Sequence record: PZ379183.1
Strand: one strand, 5' to 3'
Length of the DNA: 46,713 bases
Origin: a phage
In this document: positions 1-46,713 of the stretch, one piece after another
How positions within the stretch are numbered: the stretch's first letter is position 1
Layout: each line of letters begins with the position of its first letter
Made by a program: the position numbers and the translations under genes
The notes under the pieces: model-generated
Told to the model about the DNA's origin: nothing
The model's database searches: none
What the model saw: only the letters and a program-made list of their open reading frames with translations

Positions 1-40
1 TTTCATCTTAACGAAGAGCAACCAATCAGGAGTAACGAAT

Positions 41-562
41 ATGTCAGAACATAAAGAAGCAGTAAGTTTGGGTGAAATCATTCGATACATGGCGAGTCAG
101 GCGCTCAAGTCAGAAGACAAAGTGTGCACAGTCCCTGTGACCATGATTGCTCGTCAATACTTCGGCATGAGTCGTGAGACGTTCGTATCGCTAAGTGGTG
201 AGGAGTTTCTACCTGGTGGTGAATACCACATGCCAAAACTAAAAGCGTCATACGTTTCAAACACCGTAAGCCGAATGCCTGAGATTAAGGCGGCTGACGT
301 GCGCTCAAGGTTCTCACTTAGTTTTACCGACTTTGAGGGCGAGAGTGAGACATACTGCGCATCACTTAGCCTGGTTCCTGGCGCTGTAAAATCCGGCTCA
401 AGAAGCAAAGCAGAGCAAGAGAAGGAGGGGGCTACCATTGAAAGGTTCAAGGCTCGATTGTTGAAACTATCACCAAGCGTCGCTGGTCTTGAAGGTGATG
501 AACTTAAGGGTGCAGTATCAATGATTAACGCATACCAAGAAATGATTAAGGAGACTAAATAG
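41..562 (+). CDS. hypothetical protein (173 aa)
   Basis: Long ORF with GGAG-type RBS a few nt upstream; no recognisable motifs. Confidence 0.5.
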   Translation: MSEHKEAVSLGEIIRYMASQALKSEDKVCTVPVTMIARQYFGMSRETFVSLSGEEFLPGGEYHMPKLKASYVSNTVSRMPEIKAADVRSRFSLSFTDFEGESETYCASLSLVPGAVKSGSRSKAEQEKEGATIERFKARLLKLSPSVAGLEGDELKGAVSMINAYQEMIKETK

Positions 563-564
563 TG

Positions 565-588
565 GGTATGGTAGTCTACTACCATACC
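565..588. repeat. 24-bp near-perfect palindrome (GGTATGGTAGT-CT-ACTACCATACC)
   Basis: Inverted repeat arms of 11 nt read directly from sequence just after the stop of ORF 41..562; no T-tract follows. Confidence 0.6.
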
Positions 589-670
589 ATCCGCGGTACA
601 GTGAGGATGAGGATGAGGTTGGGGTGGCTATGGATTTATATCGGAAAGCTAAATTACTACTGAATGGAAA

Positions 671-687
671 TAGCACTTTTTGCCTAA
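671..687 (+). promoter_or_regulatory. TAGCAC-N5-GCTAA motif copy (variant TAGCACTTTTTGCCTAA)
   Basis: Motif followed by CATAAT-like element and CATCGAAACGA leader before ATG at 751. Confidence 0.5.
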
Positions 688-750
688 CGCAATAATGCCA
701 TGGATGGCATAATTATCTCATCGAAACGAGAGGCACAAAGGAAAACGAAA

Positions 751-939
751 ATGGCTAAGCGCATCACTAAAGAACTTAAAGTCCTGAATAAAGAAAACGT
801 AATCACCATCCTGACAATGTTCGGATACAACGAAGAGTCAGCGATTGCAAAGGTTGAGGCTGGTTACGATGTTGCAGTACGTAGTATGCCGGAAGCAACC
901 TCAAAAGGTATCGCCGACTTCCTGGCTACCTGCTACTGA
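751..939 (+). CDS. hypothetical small protein
   Basis: ORF track 700..939, start moved to internal ATG preceded by AAGGAAAACGAAA RBS-like leader. Confidence 0.4.
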   Translation: MAKRITKELKVLNKENVITILTMFGYNEESAIAKVEAGYDVAVRSMPEATSKGIADFLATCY

Positions 940-994
940 GTTATCTTACAAGGCATCTCGCGGGGTGCCTCAATAAGACAACTGGAGAAACAGC

Positions 995-1180
995 ATGAAA
1001 ACTAAAATGGTACATAAGAGCGAAGTTAAGATTGGCGATACTGTTATCCATCGTGGCTATCTTAGAACTGTAAATGCCAACACTTTTAGTAAGGATGAGT
1101 TTATGGGACTACTTCTTTGGGGCGACTCCTACCGGCTTGGGCAGGAGATGGTTGAAGTCATAATTGATGTTAAGTTTTGA
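995..1180 (+). CDS. hypothetical small protein (61 aa)
   Basis: ORF with GGAG RBS; stop immediately followed by TAGCAC motif. Confidence 0.4.
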   Translation: MKTKMVHKSEVKIGDTVIHRGYLRTVNANTFSKDEFMGLLLWGDSYRLGQEMVEVIIDVKF

Positions 1181-1182
1181 AT

Positions 1183-1198
1183 AGCACGAATTGCTAAA
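1183..1198 (+). promoter_or_regulatory. TAGCAC-N5-GCTAA motif copy (TAGCACGAATTGCTAA)
   Basis: Exact consensus copy directly after stop of 995..1180, followed by TATAGT-like element. Confidence 0.5.
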
Positions 1199-1253
1199 CC
1201 TTCCGCAAGGCCATTTGATATAGTGGCCTTATTGAAGCAAAGCAAAAGAGGAT

Positions 1254-1487
1254 GTGATGGAAAGGAGCAAATATGAAAGAGAGATTATCGGGCTTAATGG
1301 CGAGCGTGCTATTGTTGATGTGTATCGCACGCTATCAGCGTTCAACGTTACAGACCCGGCGTGTCAGCATGCAATTAAAAAGCTTCTATGCATGGGTTTG
1401 CGAGGCCACAAGGACGTAATTACTGACCTTGATGACGCAATAGACTCACTGAACAAGATGAAAACTTACCTGGAACAAACGAAATGA
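1254..1487 (+). CDS. hypothetical protein (77 aa)
   Basis: ORF with AAAGGAG RBS. Confidence 0.5.
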   Translation: MMERSKYEREIIGLNGERAIVDVYRTLSAFNVTDPACQHAIKKLLCMGLRGHKDVITDLDDAIDSLNKMKTYLEQTK

Positions 1488-1717
1488 TTACAATTAACCT
1501 GTCAGAGAAAGATGCAGCAATCCTTAAATCGATCATAATGAAGCCGATGTACTCTACGCTCACCTTTGAGCAGATGCGTGTCGTAAAAGAGACTAGCGCG
1601 CAAATCAACAATCAGCAGTTCGACGTATCAGACTTCGAGTCATCTCGCCAGTACGAAGCTCTAAGCATCCAGAATGCTGGCTACCTCACTAACTGGGATA
1701 AGGCGACAAAGAAATGA
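1484..1717 (+). CDS. hypothetical protein (77 aa)
   Basis: ATGA start/stop overlap with upstream ORF (translational coupling). Confidence 0.5.
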   Translation: MITINLSEKDAAILKSIIMKPMYSTLTFEQMRVVKETSAQINNQQFDVSDFESSRQYEALSIQNAGYLTNWDKATKK

Positions 1718-1866
1718 TTTATTACGTTCACACATACTATACGGGAAAATTCAACAGCGTTAAGCATATTCGGGCTTATGAGTGTTACGAAGATGCAAAA
1801 TCTCAGCTGGACGTTCTTGGAGGGGGTGTTGAGTGTTATGTTCTTCGTGATGAAATCGGTGAATAG
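1714..1866 (+). CDS. hypothetical small protein (~50 aa)
   Basis: ATGA overlap with upstream ORF; stop TAG is the first triplet of the next TAGCAT motif. Confidence 0.35.
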   Translation: MIYYVHTYYTGKFNSVKHIRAYECYEDAKSQLDVLGGGVECYVLRDEIGE

Positions 1867-1879
1867 CATGAATTGCTAA
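1864..1879 (+). promoter_or_regulatory. TAGCAC-N5-GCTAA motif copy (TAGCATGAATTGCTAA) plus ~60-bp conserved leader
   Basis: Motif followed by CCGGAGAAATCCGG hairpin and CATAAT; near-identical 60-bp copy at 40758-40820. Confidence 0.5.
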
Positions 1880-1937
1880 ACAATTGCCGGAGAAATCCGG
1901 CATAATTACCACATCGACAACGAGATGGAGTATAGAT

Positions 1938-2150
1938 ATGAAAATTAAAATTATCGACGTGAACTACATACCAGAAGAAGGCGTTCTGACACTTGAAGAA
2001 TGCGGGTTTAAGGTTGGTGACGTATTAGAAGTAACCGGTCGGTTCGGGTGTGGTAGCTTATCAGCTCGAGCGATTCGTGATACTGAGTTAGTATCAATAG
2101 GACAGATGGTTAGTTTTGAAGAAGGCGAGTACAAGGTGGTCGAAGAATGA
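1938..2150 (+). CDS. hypothetical protein (70 aa)
   Basis: ORF track 1884..2150; start placed at internal ATG with GGAG RBS because 5' part overlaps conserved leader. Confidence 0.45.
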   Translation: MKIKIIDVNYIPEEGVLTLEECGFKVGDVLEVTGRFGCGSLSARAIRDTELVSIGQMVSFEEGEYKVVEE

Positions 2151-2326
2151 AATTACAGCAAAGTAACCCTAAGCTCCAGGCTAACAACTTCGATGGTTAC
2201 ACAACATTTATCATCGCCCAGGCTTTCGGTTTGCATGATGAACCTAAGGTTCATACTATCCACTTAAATGAAGAGCAAGCTCGAGAACTGGCTTTCGAGA
2301 TTCTTGATCAATTGAATAAAATTTAA
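2147..2326 (+). CDS. hypothetical small protein (59 aa)
   Basis: ATGA overlap with upstream ORF; uninterrupted frame read manually. Confidence 0.35.
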   Translation: MKLQQSNPKLQANNFDGYTTFIIAQAFGLHDEPKVHTIHLNEEQARELAFEILDQLNKI

Positions 2327-2336
2327 GGTTTATAAA

Positions 2337-2759
2337 ATGAAATTAAGCAAATCTCAAAGGGAAGAGTTGAAGGGCAAGTTCGGTGGTCGCTGCGCTTATT
2401 GTGGGTGTGAACTACCTGAGAAAGGCTGGCATGCTGACCATGTTGAACCGGTGCTACGTAAATCTGAGGTATGCATGAAGTCAGCGGAGAAAGGAACTTT
2501 CAAGCTGAAGGCGACAGGTGAGTTTAATCGACCACAAGCTGATCGAATGGAAAACCTTTACCCTGCATGTGCTCCATGCAACCTCATGAAAACTTGCTAT
2601 TCCCTTGAAATGTTCAGGGAACAGGTGTCTCTTCAAGTCGCTCGCGGGCGTAAGAGCAGCATGAATTTTCGCACGGCAGAGCGGTTCGGCCTCATCTCCA
2701 TAGTTGAGGATCCAGTTGTTTTCTGGTTTGAGAAGTTTGAGCAAATTAACAAAATCTGA
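2337..2759 (+). CDS. HNH-family endonuclease
   Basis: Cys pairs CAYCGC and CAPCN flanking H-x-D-H-V-E-P and conserved Asn, typical HNH zinc-finger nuclease signature. Confidence 0.6.
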   Translation: MKLSKSQREELKGKFGGRCAYCGCELPEKGWHADHVEPVLRKSEVCMKSAEKGTFKLKATGEFNRPQADRMENLYPACAPCNLMKTCYSLEMFREQVSLQVARGRKSSMNFRTAERFGLISIVEDPVVFWFEKFEQINKI

Positions 2760-2769
2760 GGATAGAGAA

Positions 2770-2904
2770 ATGCATACTGGGTTAGTGATGGGTGAAGTTC
2801 TGGTTGAAGCATTGCCATGGTTACTCTGGTCATTGGGCTTCATGATTATTTACATGATTTCAGCAGCCGTAGATGACGCTAAAAGCGATCCTAACGAACA
2901 ATAA
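2770..2904 (+). CDS. small hydrophobic (membrane) protein
   Basis: Internal ATG of ORF 2704..2904 with GGATAGAGAA RBS; translation dominated by one hydrophobic stretch. Confidence 0.3.
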   Translation: MHTGLVMGEVLVEALPWLLWSLGFMIIYMISAAVDDAKSDPNEQ

Positions 2905-3084: not shown

Positions 3085-3224
3085 TGGATAACTACGAAAC
3101 ACCAAGCCAGTGGGCTAAACGGATGATGGATGAGGCTAAGACTGGCGAGGTTGCCATGATGTACTTCGAGCTAATGAATCTATGGAAAGAGCGTGAAGAT
3201 AAAATGGATAGCACGAATTGCTAA
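3084..3224 (+). CDS. hypothetical small protein ending in -DSTNC
   Basis: Frame checked manually; last codons are encoded by the TAGCACGAATTGCTAA motif itself. Confidence 0.35.
   Translation: MDNYETPSQWAKRMMDEAKTGEVAMMYFELMNLWKEREDKMDSTNC
3209..3224 (+). promoter_or_regulatory. TAGCAC-N5-GCTAA motif copy
   Basis: Exact consensus copy, followed by CCATATAAT and CATCAAACAACGAAGAG leader before ATG 3284. Confidence 0.5.
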
Positions 3225-3283
3225 ACATGACAGGCATGGATGCCATATAATTAACCCATCAAACAACGAAGAGAGATAGAGAT

Positions 3284-4226: not shown

Positions 4227-4299
4227 GTTCTGCTGGCGTAACAGGATAACGCAAAGACCTCCTAAGTCTTAGTTACTGGTTCGAGTCCAGTGCGGAACA
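4227..4299 (+). tRNA. tRNA-Arg (anticodon CCU)
   Basis: Manual cloverleaf fold: 7-bp acceptor stem GTTCTGC/GCGGAAC (one G-U), U8, D-stem GCGT/ACGC with GG in D-loop, anticodon stem AAGAC/GTCTT, loop CUCCUAA (U33, anticodon CCU, A37), T-arm ACTGG-TTCGAGT-CCAGT, discriminator A followed by encoded CCA. Confidence 0.85.
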
Positions 4300-4839: not shown

Positions 4840-5364
4840 ATGAAAGACGAAAACTTCACCAGTCAGGCGCAAGAAAAGGTCCGCTCTGGCAACTTTAAAG
4901 CCATGTACAATAAAAAGTACTCAGACATTACAACGCTAGCCAAAAACCGAAGCATGACACCCGAACAGCTATTTGAATTCGCCGTGAAATACTTCTCATG
5001 GGCTGAGAACCAGGCAATCAAGGCAATCGAGACAGCCAGCTTCCAGGGTGTGGTAAAAGAGAGCCTGGTGCACAAACCACGAGTCTTCACGCTAACCGGA
5101 TTCTGCCTTTACTGCGGTGTCACCCATAGCGCCATCGAGAAATGGAGGAAGTCGGCTGGTTATGATGAGGTGATTGCGTTCATTGATTCCGTGATTCGCG
5201 AGCAGAAATACCAGCTTGCAGCATCTGGCATCATTAACCCTGGCATGATTTCCAAAGAGCTTGGAATCGACAAGCCGCAGGAGATTACCATCAGCAACAA
5301 CTCTTCAGCTAACGACGTCGATACGATGAAGGAAGCGCTGGAGTCTGTGATTAGTAAGCTGTAA
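4840..5364 (+). CDS. terminase small subunit (putative)
   Basis: AAGGAGG RBS; 174-aa ORF immediately upstream of the large terminase gene; assignment by position. Confidence 0.5.
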   Translation: MKDENFTSQAQEKVRSGNFKAMYNKKYSDITTLAKNRSMTPEQLFEFAVKYFSWAENQAIKAIETASFQGVVKESLVHKPRVFTLTGFCLYCGVTHSAIEKWRKSAGYDEVIAFIDSVIREQKYQLAASGIINPGMISKELGIDKPQEITISNNSSANDVDTMKEALESVISKL

Positions 5365-32900: not shown

Positions 32901-33824
32901 TTAGTTTAGCAAGTCGTTTGCTTTGTACACTTTCTTTCGTATGCCTGTTTTAAATGACTCACCGTCATTAGGAACTACAACATCAACACCCCTATCGTCA
33001 GCAACAGCGAGTATATCGCTATCAGAATCACGGCAAGCAATTCTGAACTTCCTTGACTTGTCGCGGTGGATAACCATCTCCATATTGTAACAGGAGAAAG
33101 CAACAAACACTTCGCGCCCACCAGTAGCAAGGTGAACACGTATGCCATCAATATAATTGTCAACAACATAAGTATAACTATCATCCAGCTTAGAACCAAT
33201 AACGGAAACAGAATCACGAGTGTAATCACCAGCAAGGAACTTAACATTTGAATCCTCATCAATAAACATTACGTTACAGAACTCATCACTAAGCCCATCT
33301 TCATAAACCATCGAACAAGGGATTGCGTGAATCATTGAACAATTTTTAGCTATACCAACATCAAAACCAAACTCGTCATAAATACCCTCGTATGTCGTGA
33401 GTGGACTAGATTCAACTCGCTGAGTCCTCTCCATGACCTCAAGAACTTTCTTGTGGTCTACTTGAGCGCAAATTTTATAACGCTGCGTTCTTGATGCTTG
33501 CTTGTTTGCTTTAACTATAACCTCAATTGGTATTAAGTTCAGCCAGTCACCAAGCAAATTTACTGAATCAGCGAAGGACAATCCAGTGCACTTCATGACC
33601 CATCCTATACCGGAGTCACTTCCGCATTTCGAACAAACTGCCGCGCCATTTCCTTTTTCACTGCCTATTTCGTCGGTAAATCTGAATCTGTCAGTGCCAA
33701 AGCAGTATGGGCATGGTCCGTGCTTCTTACTTAGGTGTCTATCATTCCAACCAAGTTCCTTTGCATAAAATGATTTCCACAATCCGGCCATCTTAGGTAT
33801 AACTTCATTCTTATCGTAATTCAT
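32901..33824 (-). CDS. DNA primase (zinc-finger primase, putative)
   Basis: N-terminal zinc ribbon C-P-Y-C...C-S-K-C followed by acidic catalytic-like region; upstream of helicase in the replication block. Confidence 0.65.
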   Translation of the reverse strand: MNYDKNEVIPKMAGLWKSFYAKELGWNDRHLSKKHGPCPYCFGTDRFRFTDEIGSEKGNGAAVCSKCGSDSGIGWVMKCTGLSFADSVNLLGDWLNLIPIEVIVKANKQASRTQRYKICAQVDHKKVLEVMERTQRVESSPLTTYEGIYDEFGFDVGIAKNCSMIHAIPCSMVYEDGLSDEFCNVMFIDEDSNVKFLAGDYTRDSVSVIGSKLDDSYTYVVDNYIDGIRVHLATGGREVFVAFSCYNMEMVIHRDKSRKFRIACRDSDSDILAVADDRGVDVVVPNDGESFKTGIRKKVYKANDLLN

Positions 33825-34300
33825 TTGCTTAACCCGTGATTTTCGTGAAAGTTGTATTTTCCCTCTGCTTCAATTCTTACTTTATACGCCCGCTCTGGAG
33901 TATCGAAGTTCCCAAGGTGTAGCTGCTTGCCGTCAACCTTGATGTGAGCCTTAAATTTTCCGTGATTTAGCTTTGCCACTCCACAATAACCAGTTGTTGA
34001 TAAAACGCTAAGCTTGCAATTTCTTGAGTTACCTTGATTTGTTGTTACTCTTAGGTTTTCTATTCTGTTATCTAATTTGTTATGGTTTATATGATCAATG
34101 TAGTCGCCATTTTGAAGTTCTCCATTAAACATCTCCCACACAACTCTATGTACATAAGTCCTAAAGCCATTAACAGACACTTTGTAATAGCCAGATGTAG
34201 ATAGTGAGTTGCACTCATCGCCAACCTTAACACGTCTTGCAGTGCTAATCTTCCAATGCAATTTGCCATCTACATAGTAAAAATAATCATGCCAGTTCAT
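33821..34300 (-). CDS. HNH homing endonuclease
   Basis: YVHRVVW...IDHINHNKLDNRIENLR signature; paralogue of 14169..14651. Confidence 0.75.
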   Translation of the reverse strand: MNWHDYFYYVDGKLHWKISTARRVKVGDECNSLSTSGYYKVSVNGFRTYVHRVVWEMFNGELQNGDYIDHINHNKLDNRIENLRVTTNQGNSRNCKLSVLSTTGYCGVAKLNHGKFKAHIKVDGKQLHLGNFDTPERAYKVRIEAEGKYNFHENHGLSK

Positions 34301-34351: not shown

Positions 34352-34825
34352 TTACTCTTTAGCTTTTCGTGCGGCTTCGTTGGCAATCTTATTCTTGCGC
34401 CACGGTCGACAAGGTGGCTTTGTTGCTAGTTCAGCCTCAGTAACCACGCGTAGCATGTGGCGCTTCTTGCATCTAAGCGTCAGAGGCTTACCGTTACCGT
34501 CAAATTGCAGGTCTGGTCGGCAGAAAGTAGCTCGGAACCCTCCCTTATTTCTCTTGTACGCATTATGTGCTCGCTGGGCGCCTCGAGCCGAAATCATACC
34601 GCGATCAAACCATTGTTCTACAGTCTGGTGAGATACATTTAACTGCTTGGCGATATTGGCCTTCGTGCCGTAGAAGTCAAGAACCATCTCCAGACGAGCT
34701 CTTAGCCCAGCCTTTACTTCATCTTTCAATACGTAGTAGCCTGACGGTCGTTTGCGCTGTTTCTTGTCTTGCGTGCGGATGGTTCCGTTATTGCCGTTGA
34801 TAGTTCGCTTGTCAATTTCACACAT
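34352..34825 (-). CDS. Cro/YdaS-like HTH DNA-binding protein (putative regulator)
   Basis: GTKANIAKQLNVSHQTVEQWF helix-turn-helix segment, basic C-terminal region; first gene of a minus-strand operon from a divergent control region. Confidence 0.4.
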   Translation of the reverse strand: MCEIDKRTINGNNGTIRTQDKKQRKRPSGYYVLKDEVKAGLRARLEMVLDFYGTKANIAKQLNVSHQTVEQWFDRGMISARGAQRAHNAYKRNKGGFRATFCRPDLQFDGNGKPLTLRCKKRHMLRVVTEAELATKPPCRPWRKNKIANEAARKAKE

Positions 34826-34921: not shown

Positions 34922-36916
34922 ATGCTTCCAGTAGAGCGCTTAGTAGCCAACTTCGATCAAGAGAAGATTAAGCAGATTCAGAGAGATTACCAGTTTGGAG
35001 AAATCACTCCTTACCCATTCCAGTGTGTGACATTTGATGCAATTGGGAAGGCTATTGGAAAGTACGAGGCCCCATTCATCGCAGACCTGTCTGTATCTGC
35101 TGGTAAGACAATTATTCTTGCCATGATTGGAAAGCGCATGGAACAGCTTGGGCTTCCTTACATGGTGCTTTCTCGCCAGTCAGAAATTATCAGCCAGAAC
35201 GCTGAAGAGCTTCGTAACTTCGGCATCCGTAATAGCGTCTATTGCGCTGGCCTTAACGTTAAATCAGTTTACTACCCAACCATAGTGGCTAGTGAGGGCA
35301 CGGCTGCTAACGGCTTGTTTAAGGGCCTTGGTGACTATGTTCCTGCCGTTATTGCGATAGATGAATGTCATATGGTTGACCATATGGATATCGTAGAAGC
35401 TGAAGAGAACGAGGAAACATTCGAGCAGATGAGCACGAAGAAGGGTGAGATGGTTTTCAAGGATGGAGTGAATACCGGATTGCTCGGAACTGGTCGTGCG
35501 CAGTACACGCTAATCATTACTGAGATGAAGAGACGCTGCAAAGAGAAGTATGGTCGCGAACTACGCATCTTCGGTTTGACTGGCAGCCCGTACCGTAACA
35601 ACGACCACATTGTAGTTAGTAACCCAAATGTCCGTGGATTCTGGCGCAAAACTGTAATGCAAGTGCCAACCAGCTACCTTGTTGACTTGGGGTTCGTTGT
35701 TCCTACTGTCTACGGTGAAGTTGGTGATTTGGGCTACGACCTTAGTGAGTTCACTCCTGATGGAAGTGATGGGGTTAAGGACTTCAGCAAGAAAGAAATG
35801 GATGCGATGGCTGCAAAGATTCACGAAAACCAAACGATGACACAAAAGATAATGGGATTTGCTGCTAAGTTTATGGAAACAAGGAATGCTGCATTGGTAA
35901 CTTGCGCTGGCAAACAGCATTGCGAGGAGGCGGCAGCCGCACTTCCAGAAGGTGTTACTTGGGCGATAGTTACCAACTCCACTGGTGAGAAGAAGCGTAG
36001 AGAGATACTTGAGAAGGCAGCCAACGGAGAATATAAGTTCATATTTCAGATTGGTTGCCTCACAACTGGCGTAAACTGCCCCCCGTGGGATACAAGCATT
36101 ATCCTGAGGAAGGTTGGTAGCATTACTCTACTCATTCAGTTGCTTGGTCGTGGTATGCGTATCCTTAAGAAGAAGCACAAAGAAGCTGGAATGGTAAAAG
36201 ATGACCATGTTGTTCTTGATTTTGCTGGAACGCTTGATGATATGGCTGAACTTTACTTCGACCCAATTATAGAAGAGGTACAAGACCAGAAATTTAGGTC
36301 AGCAAGAAAGCGTGGTGATAAGCCAAGAATCTGTCCGGCATGCTCTTATGTGAACTCTCAATTAGCCAGGCGCTGCAATAACGTAATTGACTGGAAGCGC
36401 TGTGAGCACTTCTTTCAGTTTAGACTGTGTGAAGATATAGCGGACCCACAGACCAAAGCTATCATTAAGAAAGGATGCGGTGAGAAGAATGATATTGCAG
36501 CTAAGAATTGCAGATGCTGTGGTGAGATGCTCATAGACCCGAATGCTAAGTTATCAGGAAAAATGTATCGTAAGGGGGACTGGTTGCGAGTTTATGACTT
36601 CAAGATTGGGTTAACAAAGAACCAGTCAGGGATCGTTGCTTCATATGAGGTAATGGCTCATAGTGGAGATAAGTTCCGAGCTTATGAAACATTCTTCCCG
36701 GAGTCAGACCATCGTGTTTGTTCTGTCAAATGGAAGGCGTTTTGCTCAACTCACATCGAGAACAGGACTGAGGCTTTTAGGATTGGCAGATTGCGTAATG
36801 CTAAAATGATTATGACAAATGCACATCTTTTCCGTGCGCCGCTAAGGATTACGCACCGCAAGAATCAGAAGTCGCAAGATATTATCGCCAACAAATCATT
36901 TACGATGGAGGATTGA
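34922..36916 (+). CDS. ATP-dependent DNA helicase (superfamily 2, DEAD/DEAH-like)
   Basis: Walker A-like SAGKT, DECH box (AIDECHMVD), later helicase-type motifs and a C-terminal Cys-rich zinc-finger region. Confidence 0.75.
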   Translation: MLPVERLVANFDQEKIKQIQRDYQFGEITPYPFQCVTFDAIGKAIGKYEAPFIADLSVSAGKTIILAMIGKRMEQLGLPYMVLSRQSEIISQNAEELRNFGIRNSVYCAGLNVKSVYYPTIVASEGTAANGLFKGLGDYVPAVIAIDECHMVDHMDIVEAEENEETFEQMSTKKGEMVFKDGVNTGLLGTGRAQYTLIITEMKRRCKEKYGRELRIFGLTGSPYRNNDHIVVSNPNVRGFWRKTVMQVPTSYLVDLGFVVPTVYGEVGDLGYDLSEFTPDGSDGVKDFSKKEMDAMAAKIHENQTMTQKIMGFAAKFMETRNAALVTCAGKQHCEEAAAALPEGVTWAIVTNSTGEKKRREILEKAANGEYKFIFQIGCLTTGVNCPPWDTSIILRKVGSITLLIQLLGRGMRILKKKHKEAGMVKDDHVVLDFAGTLDDMAELYFDPIIEEVQDQKFRSARKRGDKPRICPACSYVNSQLARRCNNVIDWKRCEHFFQFRLCEDIADPQTKAIIKKGCGEKNDIAAKNCRCCGEMLIDPNAKLSGKMYRKGDWLRVYDFKIGLTKNQSGIVASYEVMAHSGDKFRAYETFFPESDHRVCSVKWKAFCSTHIENRTEAFRIGRLRNAKMIMTNAHLFRAPLRITHRKNQKSQDIIANKSFTMED

Positions 36917-38536: not shown

Positions 38537-39670
38537 ATGGCAGCAGCAAAAATTACCACCGAGCAGTTGATCGAAGAACTGAAAAACGGCCTGACTAACA
38601 AGGCGATTGCAGAGAAGTACGGAATGAACATTCGAAACGTTGAGCTTCGTCGTAGCAAGTTGGCTAAGAGTGGGGTTGGGCATGGTAATGAAGGCATCAA
38701 GAAGCTAGTTCCTGATGGCTATCTTGTTAAAGGCACTTCAACAATGATTGATGCGGATGGTAATGAGAAGCTTCGCTGGGTTAAAACTTCCATCGACGAA
38801 CAGAAACAAGAAGAGATGCTTCAGCAGATTGTTCAGGCGCTTACAGATGAGCTCCCTCGAGAGACTCCGAAACCACTCAGTGAATCAAGCTATGAGGACA
38901 CCTTGAGCCTCTACCCCGTGTTTGATATGCATATTGGCGCAATGGCTCACCATGCAGAGTGTGGGGAGAACTACAGTACAGAAATTGCAGAGCGAGTGCT
39001 TAACCAATACTTTGATTATGCAGTTGCTAAGGCCCCGAATTCATCAAAAGCCGTATTACTGATTGGTGGAGACTTCCTTCACTCGGATGGAATGGAAGCT
39101 GTAACTCCAACCAGCAAGCACGTACTTGATCAAGATAGCCGTTATCATAAACTTGTCTACGTAGCTGTTCGTGCAACTCGCCGCGCCGTCAGTAAGATGC
39201 TTGACAAGCATAAAGAGGTTGAGGTTCAGATTATACCAGGCAACCACGACCTTTCTGGGATGATTTGGCTTCGAGCTGCAATGGCTGCCTTCTACATGGA
39301 TGAGCCTCGTGTAAATGTTGATGCCTCACCAGCCGCTCTTCACGTGACGGAGTTTGGTAAAACATTGTTGGGTTACTGCCATGGTCATGAATTGCGAAAG
39401 CCTGACACTCGTCTTTCAACTCTTGCGCGCGACCATCGCAAAGCATTTGGTAATGCTGAATACGTTTATACACATAGTGGCCATTATCATCATCAGACGG
39501 TTACTGAGGGTAATCTTGGAATTGATGAGTCACACGGTCAGTTGGGTGCTAAAGATGCGTACAGCGCAAACGGAGGGTATCGCTCTTATCGTCAGGCCTC
39601 AGTAATTATCTATAGCTCAGAGTACGGTGAAGTTGGTCGATTCACTTGCCGACCTGAAATGTTTAAGTAA
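38537..39670 (+). CDS. calcineurin-like metallophosphoesterase with N-terminal HTH-like domain
   Basis: Ordered motifs D-M-H, GGDFLHSD, GNHD, C-H-G-H, T-H-S-G-H-Y-H-H matching the metallophosphatase signature; N-terminal ~110 aa contain a sigma-region-4-like HTH. Confidence 0.65.
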   Translation: MAAAKITTEQLIEELKNGLTNKAIAEKYGMNIRNVELRRSKLAKSGVGHGNEGIKKLVPDGYLVKGTSTMIDADGNEKLRWVKTSIDEQKQEEMLQQIVQALTDELPRETPKPLSESSYEDTLSLYPVFDMHIGAMAHHAECGENYSTEIAERVLNQYFDYAVAKAPNSSKAVLLIGGDFLHSDGMEAVTPTSKHVLDQDSRYHKLVYVAVRATRRAVSKMLDKHKEVEVQIIPGNHDLSGMIWLRAAMAAFYMDEPRVNVDASPAALHVTEFGKTLLGYCHGHELRKPDTRLSTLARDHRKAFGNAEYVYTHSGHYHHQTVTEGNLGIDESHGQLGAKDAYSANGGYRSYRQASVIIYSSEYGEVGRFTCRPEMFK

Positions 39671-40218: not shown

Positions 40219-40773
40219 ATGAAAAAGTTAATCATCCTTAATGCACCCCCTGGTGCTGGAAAAGATACAGTTGCAGATATCATTGTTAATCTTGGAATTT
40301 GCAAGGATAAGGTTTCATTCAAGTCACCAATGTTTAATGTTGCAAAAGGAATACTATCAAGCGATGAGTTTGATGAATTTATTAAGAATTACGATGACCG
40401 AGAGTACAAAGAATCACCACATGAATTTCTTGGTGGAATGACGGTTCGTGAATTTATGATTTGGATTAGTGAGTCAGTTATGAAGCCAGTCTTTGGTGAT
40501 GATGTTTTCGGTAAAAGGCTAGCGCAATCACTTGGTGATGGTTGCTATATCTGTGCTGATGGTGGCTTCGCTAGCGAGATTAATACTCTCATTGATTCAG
40601 GGGTTGAAGTTACTTTGATTAGACTTTTTAGGCCTGGCTATACTTTTGATGGAGATAGCCGCTCCTACATTCGCGGTGTCTGCGCAAGAGAAATTGACGT
40701 TCATGTTGTAGATGGTGATATTGATGGAACCTCTGCTTTGGTAATGCACGTAATAAATAGCACGAATTGCTAA
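40219..40773 (+). CDS. P-loop kinase (polynucleotide kinase or dNMP kinase-like)
   Basis: Walker A LNAPPGAGKDT at N-terminus; ATG 2 nt after the HAD stop with GGAG RBS; ends in -INSTNC encoded by motif. Confidence 0.55.
   Translation: MKKLIILNAPPGAGKDTVADIIVNLGICKDKVSFKSPMFNVAKGILSSDEFDEFIKNYDDREYKESPHEFLGGMTVREFMIWISESVMKPVFGDDVFGKRLAQSLGDGCYICADGGFASEINTLIDSGVEVTLIRLFRPGYTFDGDSRSYIRGVCAREIDVHVVDGDIDGTSALVMHVINSTNC
40758..40773 (+). promoter_or_regulatory. TAGCAC-N5-GCTAA motif copy plus ~60-bp conserved leader
   Basis: Exact consensus; following 60 nt nearly identical to 1864-1925, including CCGGAGTAATCCGG hairpin and CATAAT. Confidence 0.5.
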
Positions 40774-40831
40774 ACAATCGCCGGAGTAATCCGGCATAAT
40801 TACTACATCGAAAACAACAGAGGATTCAAAA

Positions 40832-41348: not shown

Positions 41349-41833
41349 TGAAGCAGAAGCTGGTAATTAGTGCAGCGACGGCTGTGGCAATATACATCGC
41401 AGCGCCGATTATTGAGCTAGTAGAAGGTGTGGAATACAAGCCTTACATGGACATTGCAGGCATTCCTACGGTTTGTTCAGGTATCACTGGTCCTGATGTG
41501 GTGTGGGGTAAAAAGTACAGTGCAAGGGAGTGCAGGAACTTACTGGAGAAACACATCCAGATTCATGGAAAGTATGTGCAGGATGCAGTAACTTACCCAA
41601 TCTCTCCACAGACAAGGGCGGCGTTAATCAGCTTTAGCTACAACGTTGGTGGCGCTGCAATGAGGAAGTCAACGGCAGTAAGGCTGATTAATCAGGGCAA
41701 GATTGAAGAGGGTTGTAATGCTCTCGCCTCCTGGAATAAAGCTCGAGTAAATGGCAAGCTAAAAGTTGTTAAAGGCCTCGTCAACAGGCGCAACGAGGAG
41801 ATTAAATTATGCTTAAGTGGGGTGGGTAAATGA
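41348..41833 (+). CDS. endolysin, GH24 lysozyme with SAR-type N-terminal signal-anchor
   Basis: N-terminal Ala/Ile-rich segment (LVISAATAVAIYIAAPI) followed by the catalytic Glu context IIELVEGVEYKPYMD...G-I-P-T, resembling SAR lysozymes such as P1 Lyz. Confidence 0.75.
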   Translation: MKQKLVISAATAVAIYIAAPIIELVEGVEYKPYMDIAGIPTVCSGITGPDVVWGKKYSARECRNLLEKHIQIHGKYVQDAVTYPISPQTRAALISFSYNVGGAAMRKSTAVRLINQGKIEEGCNALASWNKARVNGKLKVVKGLVNRRNEEIKLCLSGVGK

Positions 41834-42566: not shown

Positions 42567-44165
42567 TTACCCCAGCAATCGTGGATTAATGTAAATTTTA
42601 TCACCAATCAGGCATGTGTAGTTTTTCTCATCAAGCATAGGAATCAAGTGGTCCTTAATGCGAGTCATAATTCCAGCCTGAGCTTCAAAAGGTTTAACCT
42701 TGCGTGCAGCCTCATACAACGAGCGAACACCAACAACACCTTTACCATTCTTGCCCTGCTTAATCAGGATATCAACCAGCTTGTTCATCTCGGCATTGTC
42801 ACCAGCATGACCAGCAGCACTAGCGGATGATAAATAAGTCTTGCTTAGTTCGTTGAAAATCATAACCGCTTCCTGCATTGTATCCAGTTCAATCTCTCTT
42901 GACTTTTGAGGGCTGGATCCGGCTGGTGAGAACCAGTTACGAATTACGTGCAGAACAGAAGCGATGCGGATTGCTTGCTTATCAAACTTACCAAGAGCAC
43001 CGCGCAACATTGTGTGAGAATACTTGCCACCATCACCAAGATGAGGCTCCATCTCTTGACGAGCGCGGTTAAGGTAACGCATTGATGACGCGCTTACAGT
43101 AAGTTTCACTTCAACTTCATTCATAATCTCATGAACAAGACGGAAATAGTCTGCTTTCAGGCCGCCATCAATAGCCTCATAGGTTGAATCACCATTTTCA
43201 TCAACAAATACACGGTCGCCAAGAAATGATTTTTCACGCACCAGAAGGAAACGCTCAGATACACCAATACCACGCGCACCAGCATTCATAATGGCATTGA
43301 TTGTTTCATCCTGAGCAATTACGGAGATGCATCCCATAGCCACAAAGCTCATGTTATTTTCTGCGTTCGCACGGGCAATTGACACATTACCTGCATCCCA
43401 TGCTTTCAGCACGAGCTCGCTGTTCGTTTTCTTCGAGCCATCACCGTAAGTCATGCCTAACAGTGAGTTGACGCTAGTAGCCTCATCAGAGATTACCGCA
43501 AAATTACCCTGGCGATTGTTGATTCGCGCAAGACCTTCCGGAGTAGTATCGGAGACAGGGAATACTATATCGCATAGCTTCTCGAGCTTCTCCTCTAAAT
43601 CCTCCTTCTCCTCAAAAAGTGAAGCCATTTCAGAAGGTGATTTCTCCTGCTTCATCTCTTTAGCCAGAGCGGACAGTTTAGCCATAATCTTTTTTCGATC
43701 ACGTTTACGTACTTCATTCAACCGCTCAGTCTCAGCAATCATCGGCGCAATTGATAGCGAGTTAATGGCTGATTTACCAGTTGAAGGCGGCTGACTTGTT
43801 ACCACGTACAAAGATGTTGGCTGTTGGGTTCCATGATACTCGACAGTAAAACGCCCAAGCATTGCAGCAGAAACACAACCAAGAAAGTGCATGTAAGCTG
43901 ACGACTCAGGGAACTGAACCGAGCGAGCGATATTAGCCGATAGCTTACCAACAACATCAATATCATTACCGAGTGAGATTACTGGATACTTATCATTACC
44001 TGTATCAATCTCGACAGGTGCTTTCCAGAACGATTGAGACTGTCGATAGCCATTGGCATTAATAGCCACGCGAAGCGGTGGTAGGTTGTCATTGGCAGCG
44101 ATCGCCATAACTTGCTCAACAGATAGTTTATCTTCATTGAAATCAAACATTACTTCTCTCCGCAT
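42567..44165 (-). CDS. P-loop NTPase of unknown function (Walker A and B)
   Basis: Walker A SQPPSTGKS and Walker B-like FAVISDEA; 532 aa; early-type operon position. Confidence 0.5.
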   Translation of the reverse strand: MRREVMFDFNEDKLSVEQVMAIAANDNLPPLRVAINANGYRQSQSFWKAPVEIDTGNDKYPVISLGNDIDVVGKLSANIARSVQFPESSAYMHFLGCVSAAMLGRFTVEYHGTQQPTSLYVVTSQPPSTGKSAINSLSIAPMIAETERLNEVRKRDRKKIMAKLSALAKEMKQEKSPSEMASLFEEKEDLEEKLEKLCDIVFPVSDTTPEGLARINNRQGNFAVISDEATSVNSLLGMTYGDGSKKTNSELVLKAWDAGNVSIARANAENNMSFVAMGCISVIAQDETINAIMNAGARGIGVSERFLLVREKSFLGDRVFVDENGDSTYEAIDGGLKADYFRLVHEIMNEVEVKLTVSASSMRYLNRARQEMEPHLGDGGKYSHTMLRGALGKFDKQAIRIASVLHVIRNWFSPAGSSPQKSREIELDTMQEAVMIFNELSKTYLSSASAAGHAGDNAEMNKLVDILIKQGKNGKGVVGVRSLYEAARKVKPFEAQAGIMTRIKDHLIPMLDEKNYTCLIGDKIYINPRLLG

Positions 44166-45745: not shown

Positions 45746-45896
45746 TTTTAAACCACCTTTCTTTAAGAACCTGAACCCAAGACTTTGCATCATCTTCTGT
45801 CATGAAGAAACTTAATTTTGGGTACTTGTGAAACCCTTTTAACTCAACAACCCAATGACCATTACTGTAACTGTAACCAACTGTTTTTTCTGTCAT
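45735..45896 (-). CDS. hypothetical small protein
   Basis: Internal ATG of ORF 45735..46034 with GAGAG RBS; upstream part of the track ORF lies in a structured leader. Confidence 0.3.
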   Translation of the reverse strand: MTEKTVGYSYSNGHWVVELKGFHKYPKLSFFMTEDDAKSWVQVLKERWFKNET

Positions 45897-46137
45897 CACT
45901 GTCATCTCTCTATGTTTTCTTGTTATCGAAATCTCTTCAACGTACTCACTACAACTCGGGATTTTAAACCCGGCCCGGCATCCTATCAAAAGGACCCGCA
46001 AGGCGCTTTGGTGGGTAAGGTAACGCTTCCTCACATTGCGCGGTGTCGTTCACTCTTTTTGGTTCCTTTCGGAAGTGACTCAGAGTCCAGCACCGTTTCG
46101 ATGAATACATAGTAGCAACTTACTAATGATTGTGCAT

Positions 46138-46153
46138 TAGCAAAAAGTGCTAT
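46138..46153 (-). promoter_or_regulatory. TAGCAC-N5-GCTAA motif copy (minus strand, variant TAGCACTTTTTGCTAA)
   Basis: Followed on minus strand by CATCGAAACGG leader toward the right-end operon. Confidence 0.45.
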
Positions 46154-46159
46154 TCGTTG

Positions 46160-46270
46160 GATTTATAGATTGTTGCAGCTATTGCAATGATTCATCTCAT
46201 TATTGCACATATAGCAATATTGCATCGAATGCAATGATGTTTTTGATTGTTGCAGAATTTGCAATGATCG
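46160..46270. repeat. array of TTGCAATGAT direct repeats and TTGCA-based palindromes
   Basis: ATTGTTGCAG-N-TTGCAATGAT at 46160-46185 and 46244-46270; ATTGCACATATAGCAAT and TTGCATCGAATGCAA palindromes between them. Confidence 0.65.
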
Positions 46271-46415
46271 ATGTGGGGTGAATGAATGGTGGATGGACTA
46301 CCATACAAGTTGATTTTGATTCTTGCTGAGCCAATTTGGATATACACGTTATCGAAGTTATGGTGTGTATATGAGGTGCGCTTCCGAAGAATCATACACG
46401 CCTACCACGCTAGAT

Positions 46416-46500
46416 TACGCAATGGTTACATAATAATATCTATATATATCAACCTTTTACTATATTATTATTATTATTATATATATGTATGTATATGGTG
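46416..46500. repeat. second copy of the 85-bp AT-rich element with (TTA)n microsatellite
   Basis: TACGCAATGGTTACATAATAATATCTATATATATCAACCTTTTACT...(TTA)6...TATATAT is near-identical to 27491-27575. Confidence 0.7.
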
Positions 46501-46713
46501 TAGATTGGTCGTATGGATGGGTCGATAGTTTTTCTATGAAAACTACTAATTTTATCTATATAGATACATATGCATACCCCCGGCGAATCCGCGTAAAATC
46601 TTACACAGGGTAATTACACCAGCTATAGCTGGGCTGAGAGGTCAAAAAGCGTAACCAATGCAGATATAAACACAACATAACACTTGATAACGCGTATATT
46701 CATGATACCATGG

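Follow-up and report, generated by a model that had tools for sequence, protein, structure and literature searches.

What does the dense cluster of TTGC-containing repeats in the right-end control region of PZ379183.1 do for the phage? The window, the whole stretch of DNA analysed, is 46,713 bp long and is the complete genome of an Rtp-like coliphage of the Drexlerviridae (T1/Rtp-like). Its nearest deposited relatives are phages ES and AN_ECEAS, with ~91% identity across 87% of a 16.7-kb query. The two ends of the window adjoin in phage ES, ATACCATGG running directly into TTTCATCTTAACG, so the cluster lies within one ~850-bp non-coding region between divergent early operons. The minus-strand early operon on one flank has its first gene starting near 45903 and includes the DUF3987 helicase gene 42567..44165, and the plus-strand early operon on the other flank begins with gene 41..562.

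An earlier note had described two direct-repeat units and two palindromes here. Both pairs are present, the ATTGTTGCAG-N4-TTGCAATGAT units at 46169-46191 and 46246-46268 (21/24 identical) and the TTGC-containing palindromes at 46203-46217 and 46220-34. Both direct-repeat units are themselves dyads, and hence the array at 46173-46264 consists of four 15-bp sites of the form TTGCA-N5-TGCAA with the core TTGC-N7-GCAA, starting at 46173, 46203, 46220 and 46250. The sites and the boxes around them are as follows.

46173..46187, no strand: site 1, TTGCAGCTATTGCAA, an exact TTGCA-N5-TGCAA; TTGC-N7-GCAA kept in 17/19 relatives
46203..46217, no strand: site 2, TTGCACATATAGCAA, ATTGC-N7-GCAAT with one mismatch; core kept in 17/19 relatives
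46220..46234, no strand: site 3, TTGCATCGAATGCAA, TTGCAT-CGA-ATGCAA, an exact dyad; core kept in 13/19 relatives
46250..46264, no strand: site 4, TTGCAGAATTTGCAA, an exact dyad with the flanks GATTG...TGAT
46311..46329, + strand: third copy of the direct repeat TGATTTTGATTCTTGCTGA (left-flank box TGATTTTGATTCTTGC), copies 1 and 2 being at 46161-79 and 46238-56
46159..46166, + strand: GGATTTAT box (AGATTTAT in most relatives), resembling the P22 pac core; GATTTAT (46160-66) invariant in 19 relatives

The dyad centres are spaced by 30/17/30 bp, with half-site centres 10 bp apart inside each dyad, and 46218.5 is the symmetry axis of the array as a whole. Sites 1+2 and 3+4 make a 46-nt direct repeat, 47 bp apart. 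Copies 1 and 2 of TGATTTTGATTCTTGCTGA overlap the left halves of sites 1 and 4, and the spacings between its copies are 77 and 73 bp.

With one mismatch or fewer, the dyad pattern has 10 matches genome-wide against 3.9 expected, and the array holds 3/3 exact copies and 1/7 one-mismatch copies. The exact dyad is absent from the rest of the genome, and both exact genome copies of TTGCAATGAT are in the array. Within 121 bp there are nine TTGCA/TGCAA pentamers where 0.42 would be expected (Poisson 8e-10), and no 121-bp stretch of the genome has more. Thus, the density and symmetry noticed earlier are real, being far above chance by the pentamer statistics and backed by conservation.

Conservation was assessed in 19 distinct relatives from the Braunvirinae, the Rogunavirinae and Nouzillyvirus, across which 46137-46270 aligns without a gap. 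The mean majority fraction is 0.97 in the TTGC/GCAA columns, 0.80 in the dyad centres and 0.66-0.67 in the DNA to the left and right, and 24/32 half-site columns are invariant. The right half of site 3, ATGCAATGATG, is near-invariant, while at site 4 the left half is invariant and the right half is kept in 10/19 relatives. Conservation in related phages had been put forward as a check of the array, and the half-sites come out well above their flanks.

Conserved half-sites with variable centres are the signature of protein-binding dyads, and selection acting on the half-sites is supported. The proposal that the array offers sites for a dimeric DNA-binding protein agrees with both this selection and the 10-bp half-site geometry. 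On such comparative grounds we regard the array as a real, conserved and functional element.

Outside these relatives, the array changes in part. T1 (Tunavirinae) has two such dyads, the pair being the counterpart of sites 3 and 4. The pattern of sites 3+4, TTGC-N7-GCAA then N15/16 then GATTGTTGC-N7-GCAATG followed by a G-rich run, is found in T1 and also in the uncultured lineages L038, L046 and L047. TTGC dyads were not found in the control regions of TLS and NBD2. An exact 25-mer scan of IMG/VR returned five contigs only.

The promoter-proximal slot, occupied here by sites 1 and 2, holds different inverted repeats in other subfamilies, NBD2 included. The TLS group has AGACCGATTGGTCT (AGACC-N4-GGTCT) there; T1, at the end of its record, and many other phages have TATTCC/GGAATA. 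In T1 and numerous Klebsiella phages these repeats read ATTATTCCA...TGGAATA. In TLS, just right of the leftward motif, there are two overlapping copies of TAGACCGATTGGTCTA, an 11/14 match to the E. coli RutR box TTGACCAnnTGGTCAA (PMC2475637).

What, then, would a protein bound here do? Packaging is one answer. The pac site of T1 has been known genetically since the 1980s. In the accessible literature on T1-like phages we found no description of the TTGC dyads, and the T1 pac is still undefined in sequence. For SU57 the pac was 'not identified' (PMC7718038), and for TLS it was assigned only by analogy to P22, as a P22-like AGATTT (PMC11447400). An earlier pac proposal for the family, the ATATA repeats, is attributed to the Rtp paper in PMC8421802.

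The packaging ends of relatives are informative. The PhageTerm forward packaging start of MSK is at record position 36,862 (PMC8421802), which is 46301 in the window and 38 nt to the right of site 4. For UDF157lw, the record was rotated to open at the PhageTerm start (PMC10838988), a point 32 nt right of that phage's own site 4 and equal to window ~46296. The SU57 end, chosen from the PhageTerm output and a coverage step (PMC7718038), maps to window 46318, ~53 bp right of site 4. MSK and UDF157lw belong to two subfamilies and differ in the sequence at the cut (GGACTA/CCATAC versus GGAGGTT/TGGATC, the slash marking the cut), but their distances to site 4 are near-equal. A different cut sequence at a kept distance fits recognition of the array and then cleavage at a measured distance.

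Record ends gather in the same place. The annotated terminal repeat 1..2800 of the T1 record begins at the edge of T1's own first TTGCA-N5-TGCAA dyad, and the Rtp record begins inside site 2, at window 46213. The record ends of ESCO41, FP, IMM-001, Rogue1, Rao1 (46292), CEB_EC3a (46336) and ZL19 (~46339) all fall within 46144-46339, and some relatives' termini may have been copied from the T1 or Rtp conventions. For a 44,219-bp phage, 3/20 independent assemblies listed break within ~250 bp of the array against ~0.2 expected. The restriction-mapped pac of TLS (PMC11447400) is ~110 bp right of TLS's own palindromes. From the relatives' ends one more feature is placed.

46290..46340, + strand: putative packaging-initiation zone, transferred to PZ379183.1 by homology

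In the relatives MSK, UDF157lw, SU57, T1 and Rtp, the virion end or first packaging cut is thus at or beside the element, and on this evidence a role as pac is no less likely than transcriptional control. The dyads, ~35 bp from the relatives' first cut, become a concrete candidate for the undefined pac signal of the family, and not simply a repressor operator. Our preferred reading is that the array may be the recognition part of the pac site, where headful packaging starts. We hold it tentatively, at a little under an even chance.

From the observed anatomy, conservation and coincidence with the relatives' packaging starts, we infer which protein may bind and that its binding would direct the cut. 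Directly left of the relatives' first-cut point are the four conserved dyads, co-oriented GATTG/TGAT boxes and the GATTTAT box. A P22 gp3-like small terminase, alone or with an accessory DNA-binding protein, would assemble on the repeats and position the large terminase, which would cut ~30-55 bp right of site 4 with the cut sequence mattering little. Packaging would run rightwards through window position 1, so that the array would be left on the non-encapsidated side of the first cut, as SPP1 pacL is. The third direct-repeat copy is just right of the presumed cut, so the boxes would flank it. The candidate reader is encoded elsewhere in the window.

4840..5364, + strand: small terminase (TerS), PF16677 GP3_package (48.3 bits versus a cut-off of 29.4), phrog_606; candidate pac reader

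This TerS is of the gp3 family that goes with a P22-type pac, and P22-like phages are among its distant tblastn matches. The element is also single-copy in cis, as a pac should be, in that the exact dyad and TTGCAATGAT are confined to it. Most of the listed relatives with the array have a TerS sharing 63-68% identity with that of the window (96% in AN_ECEAS), and the half-sites (~97%) are far better kept than the flanks and than TerS in most of these relatives. Among the window, T1, TLS and NBD2, the highest TerS identity is between the window and T1, the only pair sharing dyads, at 56.5% versus 46-53%, a small and phylogeny-confounded margin. A tRNA gene (4227-4299, + strand; Rfam RF00005, 58.9 bits) is found among the small early genes that precede those of the terminase.

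Several points count against the pac reading. Lying next to the cut is not the same as being recognised. TLS and NBD2 have a homologous TerS (~51% identity) yet no TTGC dyads. The lineage-specific inverted repeats at the promoter-proximal slot look more like operators. Dimeric HTH regulators typically bind short perfect dyads whose half-sites are 10 bp apart, and no ring-shaped TerS of the P22 gp3 family is known to recognise dyads of this kind. The 22-bp P22 pac site itself, AAGATTTATCTG, is quoted in PMC11447400. Its match here comprises the GATTTAT core (AGATTTAT in relatives) and about 7-10/22 bases overall.

T1 can also start packaging on lambda DNA, between genes P and Q ('esp'). No strong TTGCA dyad was found in the lambda P-Q interval. 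What it does have is an 8/10 + 8/10 pair at 41612/41638, along with scattered matches of 11-13 nt to the first dyad of T1. Separately, the 10-mer TTGCATGGTG, the left part of that dyad, occurs three times in lambda (27166, 33458 and 39901) against ~0.09 expected, none with the matching right half. P1-like Dam control through GATC clusters near pac in T1 and TLS was considered and dropped, for GATC is frequent in these genomes. The array part of the window has one GATC only, at 46267.

Transcriptional control is the other answer, and it depends on where the promoters are.

46135..46155, - strand: marbox-like 21-nt motif of the family, ATAGCACTTTTTGCTAA, part of the leftward early promoter; near-invariant (16/17 columns) in relatives
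46093..46114, - strand: leftward promoter, -10 TACTAT at 46114..46109 and conserved leader CATCGAAACGG at 46103..46093
46684..46711, + strand: rightward sigma-70-type promoter TTGATA-N16-TG-n-TACCAT, driving gene 41..562; in the same place in Rtp, G8 and IME542

The minus-strand motif copy reported next to the array is indeed there, at 46137-46153. In 16 motif copies the -10 hexamer comes 37-39 nt past the motif start and is followed by the common leader CATCGAAACGA. This position relative to the motif puts the leftward promoter at -10 46114..46109 with a predicted start near 46100, and the dyads accordingly at about -73 to -165. The array begins 20 bp upstream of this promoter's upstream motif and is ~420 bp from the rightward promoter, and it overlaps neither the -35/-10 of the predicted leftward promoter nor that of the rightward one. 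The idea of a bidirectional early control region therefore holds for the location, between divergent early operons whose ends are contiguous in ES, but the array is clear of both core promoters.

The dyads may be operators for a dimeric phage regulator that tunes the leftward early promoter, by anti-activation or looping, with no packaging role. We judge this unlikely, though it comes second after the pac reading and ahead of an origin and of CytR sites. The 5-N5-5 dyads do have the conserved half-sites and variable centres of operators, they start close upstream of the motif, and other subfamilies have different inverted repeats in the same slot. However, lambdoid operators overlap -35/-10 elements, and these dyads are clear of those of every predicted promoter. 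This alternative also leaves the coincidence of the packaging ends with the array unexplained.

Two candidate regulators can be named. One is the product of 34352..34825, suggested earlier as a binder, and it is a genuine Cro/YdaS-like HTH protein. Its recognition helix diverges most in TLS and NBD2 (NLKTVWGW and SNSLLTIW), which have no TTGC dyads. The helix is an ambiguous guide to the binder, for it also varies (SHQTV, TPQAV, SRQAV and TRQAV) among the phages sharing the array, and Q-type helices occur in L040/L071 and L050-52, where dyads are absent. Nor was the TTGC dyad found in the HTH gene's own promoter region. The other HTH attribution, to the N-terminal domain of 38537..39670, fails, as this plus-strand gene encodes an SbcD-like DNA-repair exonuclease (phrog_704) with no HTH detected. 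ORF 33821..34300 (- strand), which separates the primase gene from that of the HTH regulator, encodes an HNH endonuclease. The annotations of T1 and TLS show nothing equivalent at this place, and the ORF has probably been inserted as a mobile element.

The second candidate is the first early protein, 41..562. This plus-strand gene encodes a DUF7174 protein, with a distant homologue at the same position in T1 and TLS (~20-28% identity). Its AF2 model (pLDDT 78) predicts a helix/beta-hairpin domain at the N-terminus and, at the C-terminus, a long helical hairpin, which counts in its favour. Fold searches gave no significant match, with weak winged-helix matches only (Stn1, CtsR and RepE). Moreover, the protein is only 20-28% identical between the window and T1, though both share the dyads.

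Returning to the pac reading, the position of the array at about -73 to -165 from the leftward early promoter means that its occupancy may also modulate this promoter. A dual use of the array in packaging and transcription control is possible.

The binder may alternatively come from the host. The leftward motif belongs to a 21-nt intergenic repeat, aaATAGCACnnnTTGnTAAAA, with 18 copies genome-wide, such as 1181-1199(+), 3208-3226(+), 40757-40775(+) and 46135-46153(-). The function of this T1-family repeat is listed as an open question in the TLS paper (PMC11447400). The repeat fits the MarA/SoxS/Rob marbox consensus AYnGCACnnWnnRYYAAAY (PMC3709825). With two mismatches or fewer, this consensus has 36 matches versus 14.5+/-3.9 in shuffles, three copies being perfect, and the box is oriented the same way as transcription. 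A -10 that starts 37-39 nt past the box start is the geometry of class II marbox promoters. Both the match and the geometry suggest that the motif-bearing phage promoters may depend on host Rob/MarA/SoxS or a mimic. Most of them also share CATCGAAACGA as the initial transcribed sequence, ~10 nt past the -10, for example at 46103..46093(-).

For the dyads, the most plausible host regulator is CytR, with the half-site GTTGCATT (pentamers TGCAA/TTGCA), and its binding would tie early phage functions to the host nucleoside status. Every half-site is a 6-7/8 match to the CytR octamer GTTGCATT, the first T1 dyad reads GTTGCATG-G-TGTGCAAC, and the Klebsiella-type relatives have ATGTGCAAC-GA-ATTGCATA, near the SELEX optimum. 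CytR is tolerant of variable spacing and orientation (PMC3454398), and a host factor would account for half-sites that are invariant across mosaic phages. The invariant array centre AGCAA-TA-TTGCA (46213-24) fits the CytR form TGCAA-N2-3-TTGCA. It is the only place with the described arrangement, however, for the relative orientation of the octamers in the four main dyads is the reverse of that described for CytR inverted repeats.

Natural CytR action requires CRP sites. By eye, flanking TGTGA-N6-TCACA-like sites were not seen in 46130-46300. The CytR motif is weak and the resemblance to it correspondingly cheap, which counts against CytR, as do the TLS-type E. coli phages that have no TTGC sites. 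We find CytR binding very improbable.

More broadly, host transcription factors and not phage proteins may govern the whole left-end control region of T1-like phages, a view that we regard as quite improbable. The TTGCA dyads would then be CytR-type, the TAGACCGATTGGTCTA of the TLS group RutR-type and the ~18 motif promoters MarA/SoxS/Rob class II-like. If so, a virulent phage that encodes neither RNA polymerase nor sigma factor would read the host nucleoside/pyrimidine and stress status and time its early transcription and packaging initiation by it.

The region holds one more landmark, which raises the matter of replication.

46420..46509, no strand: AT-rich block, GC 15-20%, with TATATA runs; 160 bp from the array

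In every family member with an intact region, this block is 310-395 bp from the leftward motif, and the order of leftward promoter motif, repeats and AT-rich block is family-wide. The dyads may thus be origin iterons, four initiator-binding dyads with the block as the unwinding element, like ori-lambda. The four dyad repeats at one locus and the AT-rich block (15-20% GC) at its family-wide fixed distance fit this picture, the array is 2 kb upstream of the DUF3987 helicase gene, and DUF7174 has weak, non-significant RepE-like fold matches. Also, the origin of T1-like phages is not located in the literature (PMC7718038, PMC11447400).

We nonetheless consider an origin improbable. The helicase is 84% identical to the window's in NBD2 and 71% in TLS, both lacking dyads, but 58% in T1, which has them. 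An NBD2 helicase that is so close yet comes with no dyads counts against a helicase-set origin specificity. When TerS, the HTH protein, the helicase and DUF7174 are compared among three or four phages in this way, phylogeny confounds the outcome, so the comparisons argue only against the helicase and name no binder. DnaA boxes were not found in the region, the GC skew mirrors the gene orientation only, and the AT-rich block does not adjoin the repeats. An origin would also leave the virion ends unexplained.

Other elements surround the array. An imperfect inverted repeat of ~36 nt, 46337-46372 / 46666-46702, with arms 88% complementary, brackets the AT-rich block, and its right arm overlaps the rightward promoter at the -35 and spacer (TTGATAACGCGTAT). 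The 11-mers ATACGCGTTAT / ATAACGCGTAT are a perfect inverted pair in Rtp. Looping or autoregulation is a possible role for the repeat. A mosaic insert (45905-46135) separates the leftward promoter from the first minus-strand gene; G8 and T145P1 have it, and ES and IME542 have other sequence in its place. The insert has its own sigma-70-like promoter on the minus strand, TTGATA-17-TAAAAT at 45989..45961.

A structured-RNA explanation of the region was dropped on two results. Rfam was searched with gathering thresholds for the whole window and with E-value thresholds for 45850-46713, and gave only the tRNA and one sub-threshold match. The predicted fold of the leader 45904-46100(-) is no better than shuffles (z = -0.7).

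How does the array compare with known systems? The SPP1 pac consists of pacL-pacC-pacR and is bound by the small terminase G1P; its left part stays unpackaged and headful packaging is unidirectional. The array resembles it in having repeated boxes that flank the first cut, here a predicted one, in a promoter-containing non-coding region. SPP1 boxes, however, are short direct repeats and A-tracts and not 15-bp dyads, and the SPP1 pac adjoins terS, which is ~5 kb away here; the TerS families differ too.

The likeness to P22 pac/gp3 is in the homologous TerS (PF16677), in the GATTTAT box, which matches the P22 pac core, and in the relatives' record ends scattered over ~200 bp like the P22 end-site series. 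The P22 pac, in contrast, is a single asymmetric 22-bp site inside gene 3, with no dyad array. P1 pac and lambda cosB are repeated terminase-binding elements beside the cut, and in cosB R3 and R2 are inverted relative to each other. The array shares with both the multiple short repeats within ~150 bp of the cleavage site. But P1 uses TGATCA/G hexamers under Dam methylation control, lambda cuts precisely at cosN, and the sequences and terminase families of both differ from those here.

Among regulatory systems, the lambdoid OR/OL also have several 15-17-bp dyads with conserved half-sites and variable centres between divergent early operons. Those overlap -35/-10 and adjoin repressor genes, whereas the sites here are upstream of the promoter's upstream element. 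The E. coli CytR operators share the TTGCA/TGCAA pentamers and octamer-like flanks, but the main dyads are reversed in orientation here and no flanking CRP sites are seen by eye. The ori-lambda iterons are likewise four dyad-symmetric repeats with an AT-rich tract nearby; the sites here differ in being outside an initiator gene, with the AT tract 160 bp away and no covariation with the helicase.

The array bears on the biology of the family in several ways. Its promoter-proximal slot with the subfamily-specific inverted repeats is a natural system for studying specificity change. A defined pac element would give a handle on the DNA choice by the P22-gp3-type terminase in the Drexlerviridae and on generalized transduction by T1-like phages. 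These phages are notorious contaminants of laboratories and fermenters, and such an element would also open a route to packageable phagemids or to pac-defective strains of them.
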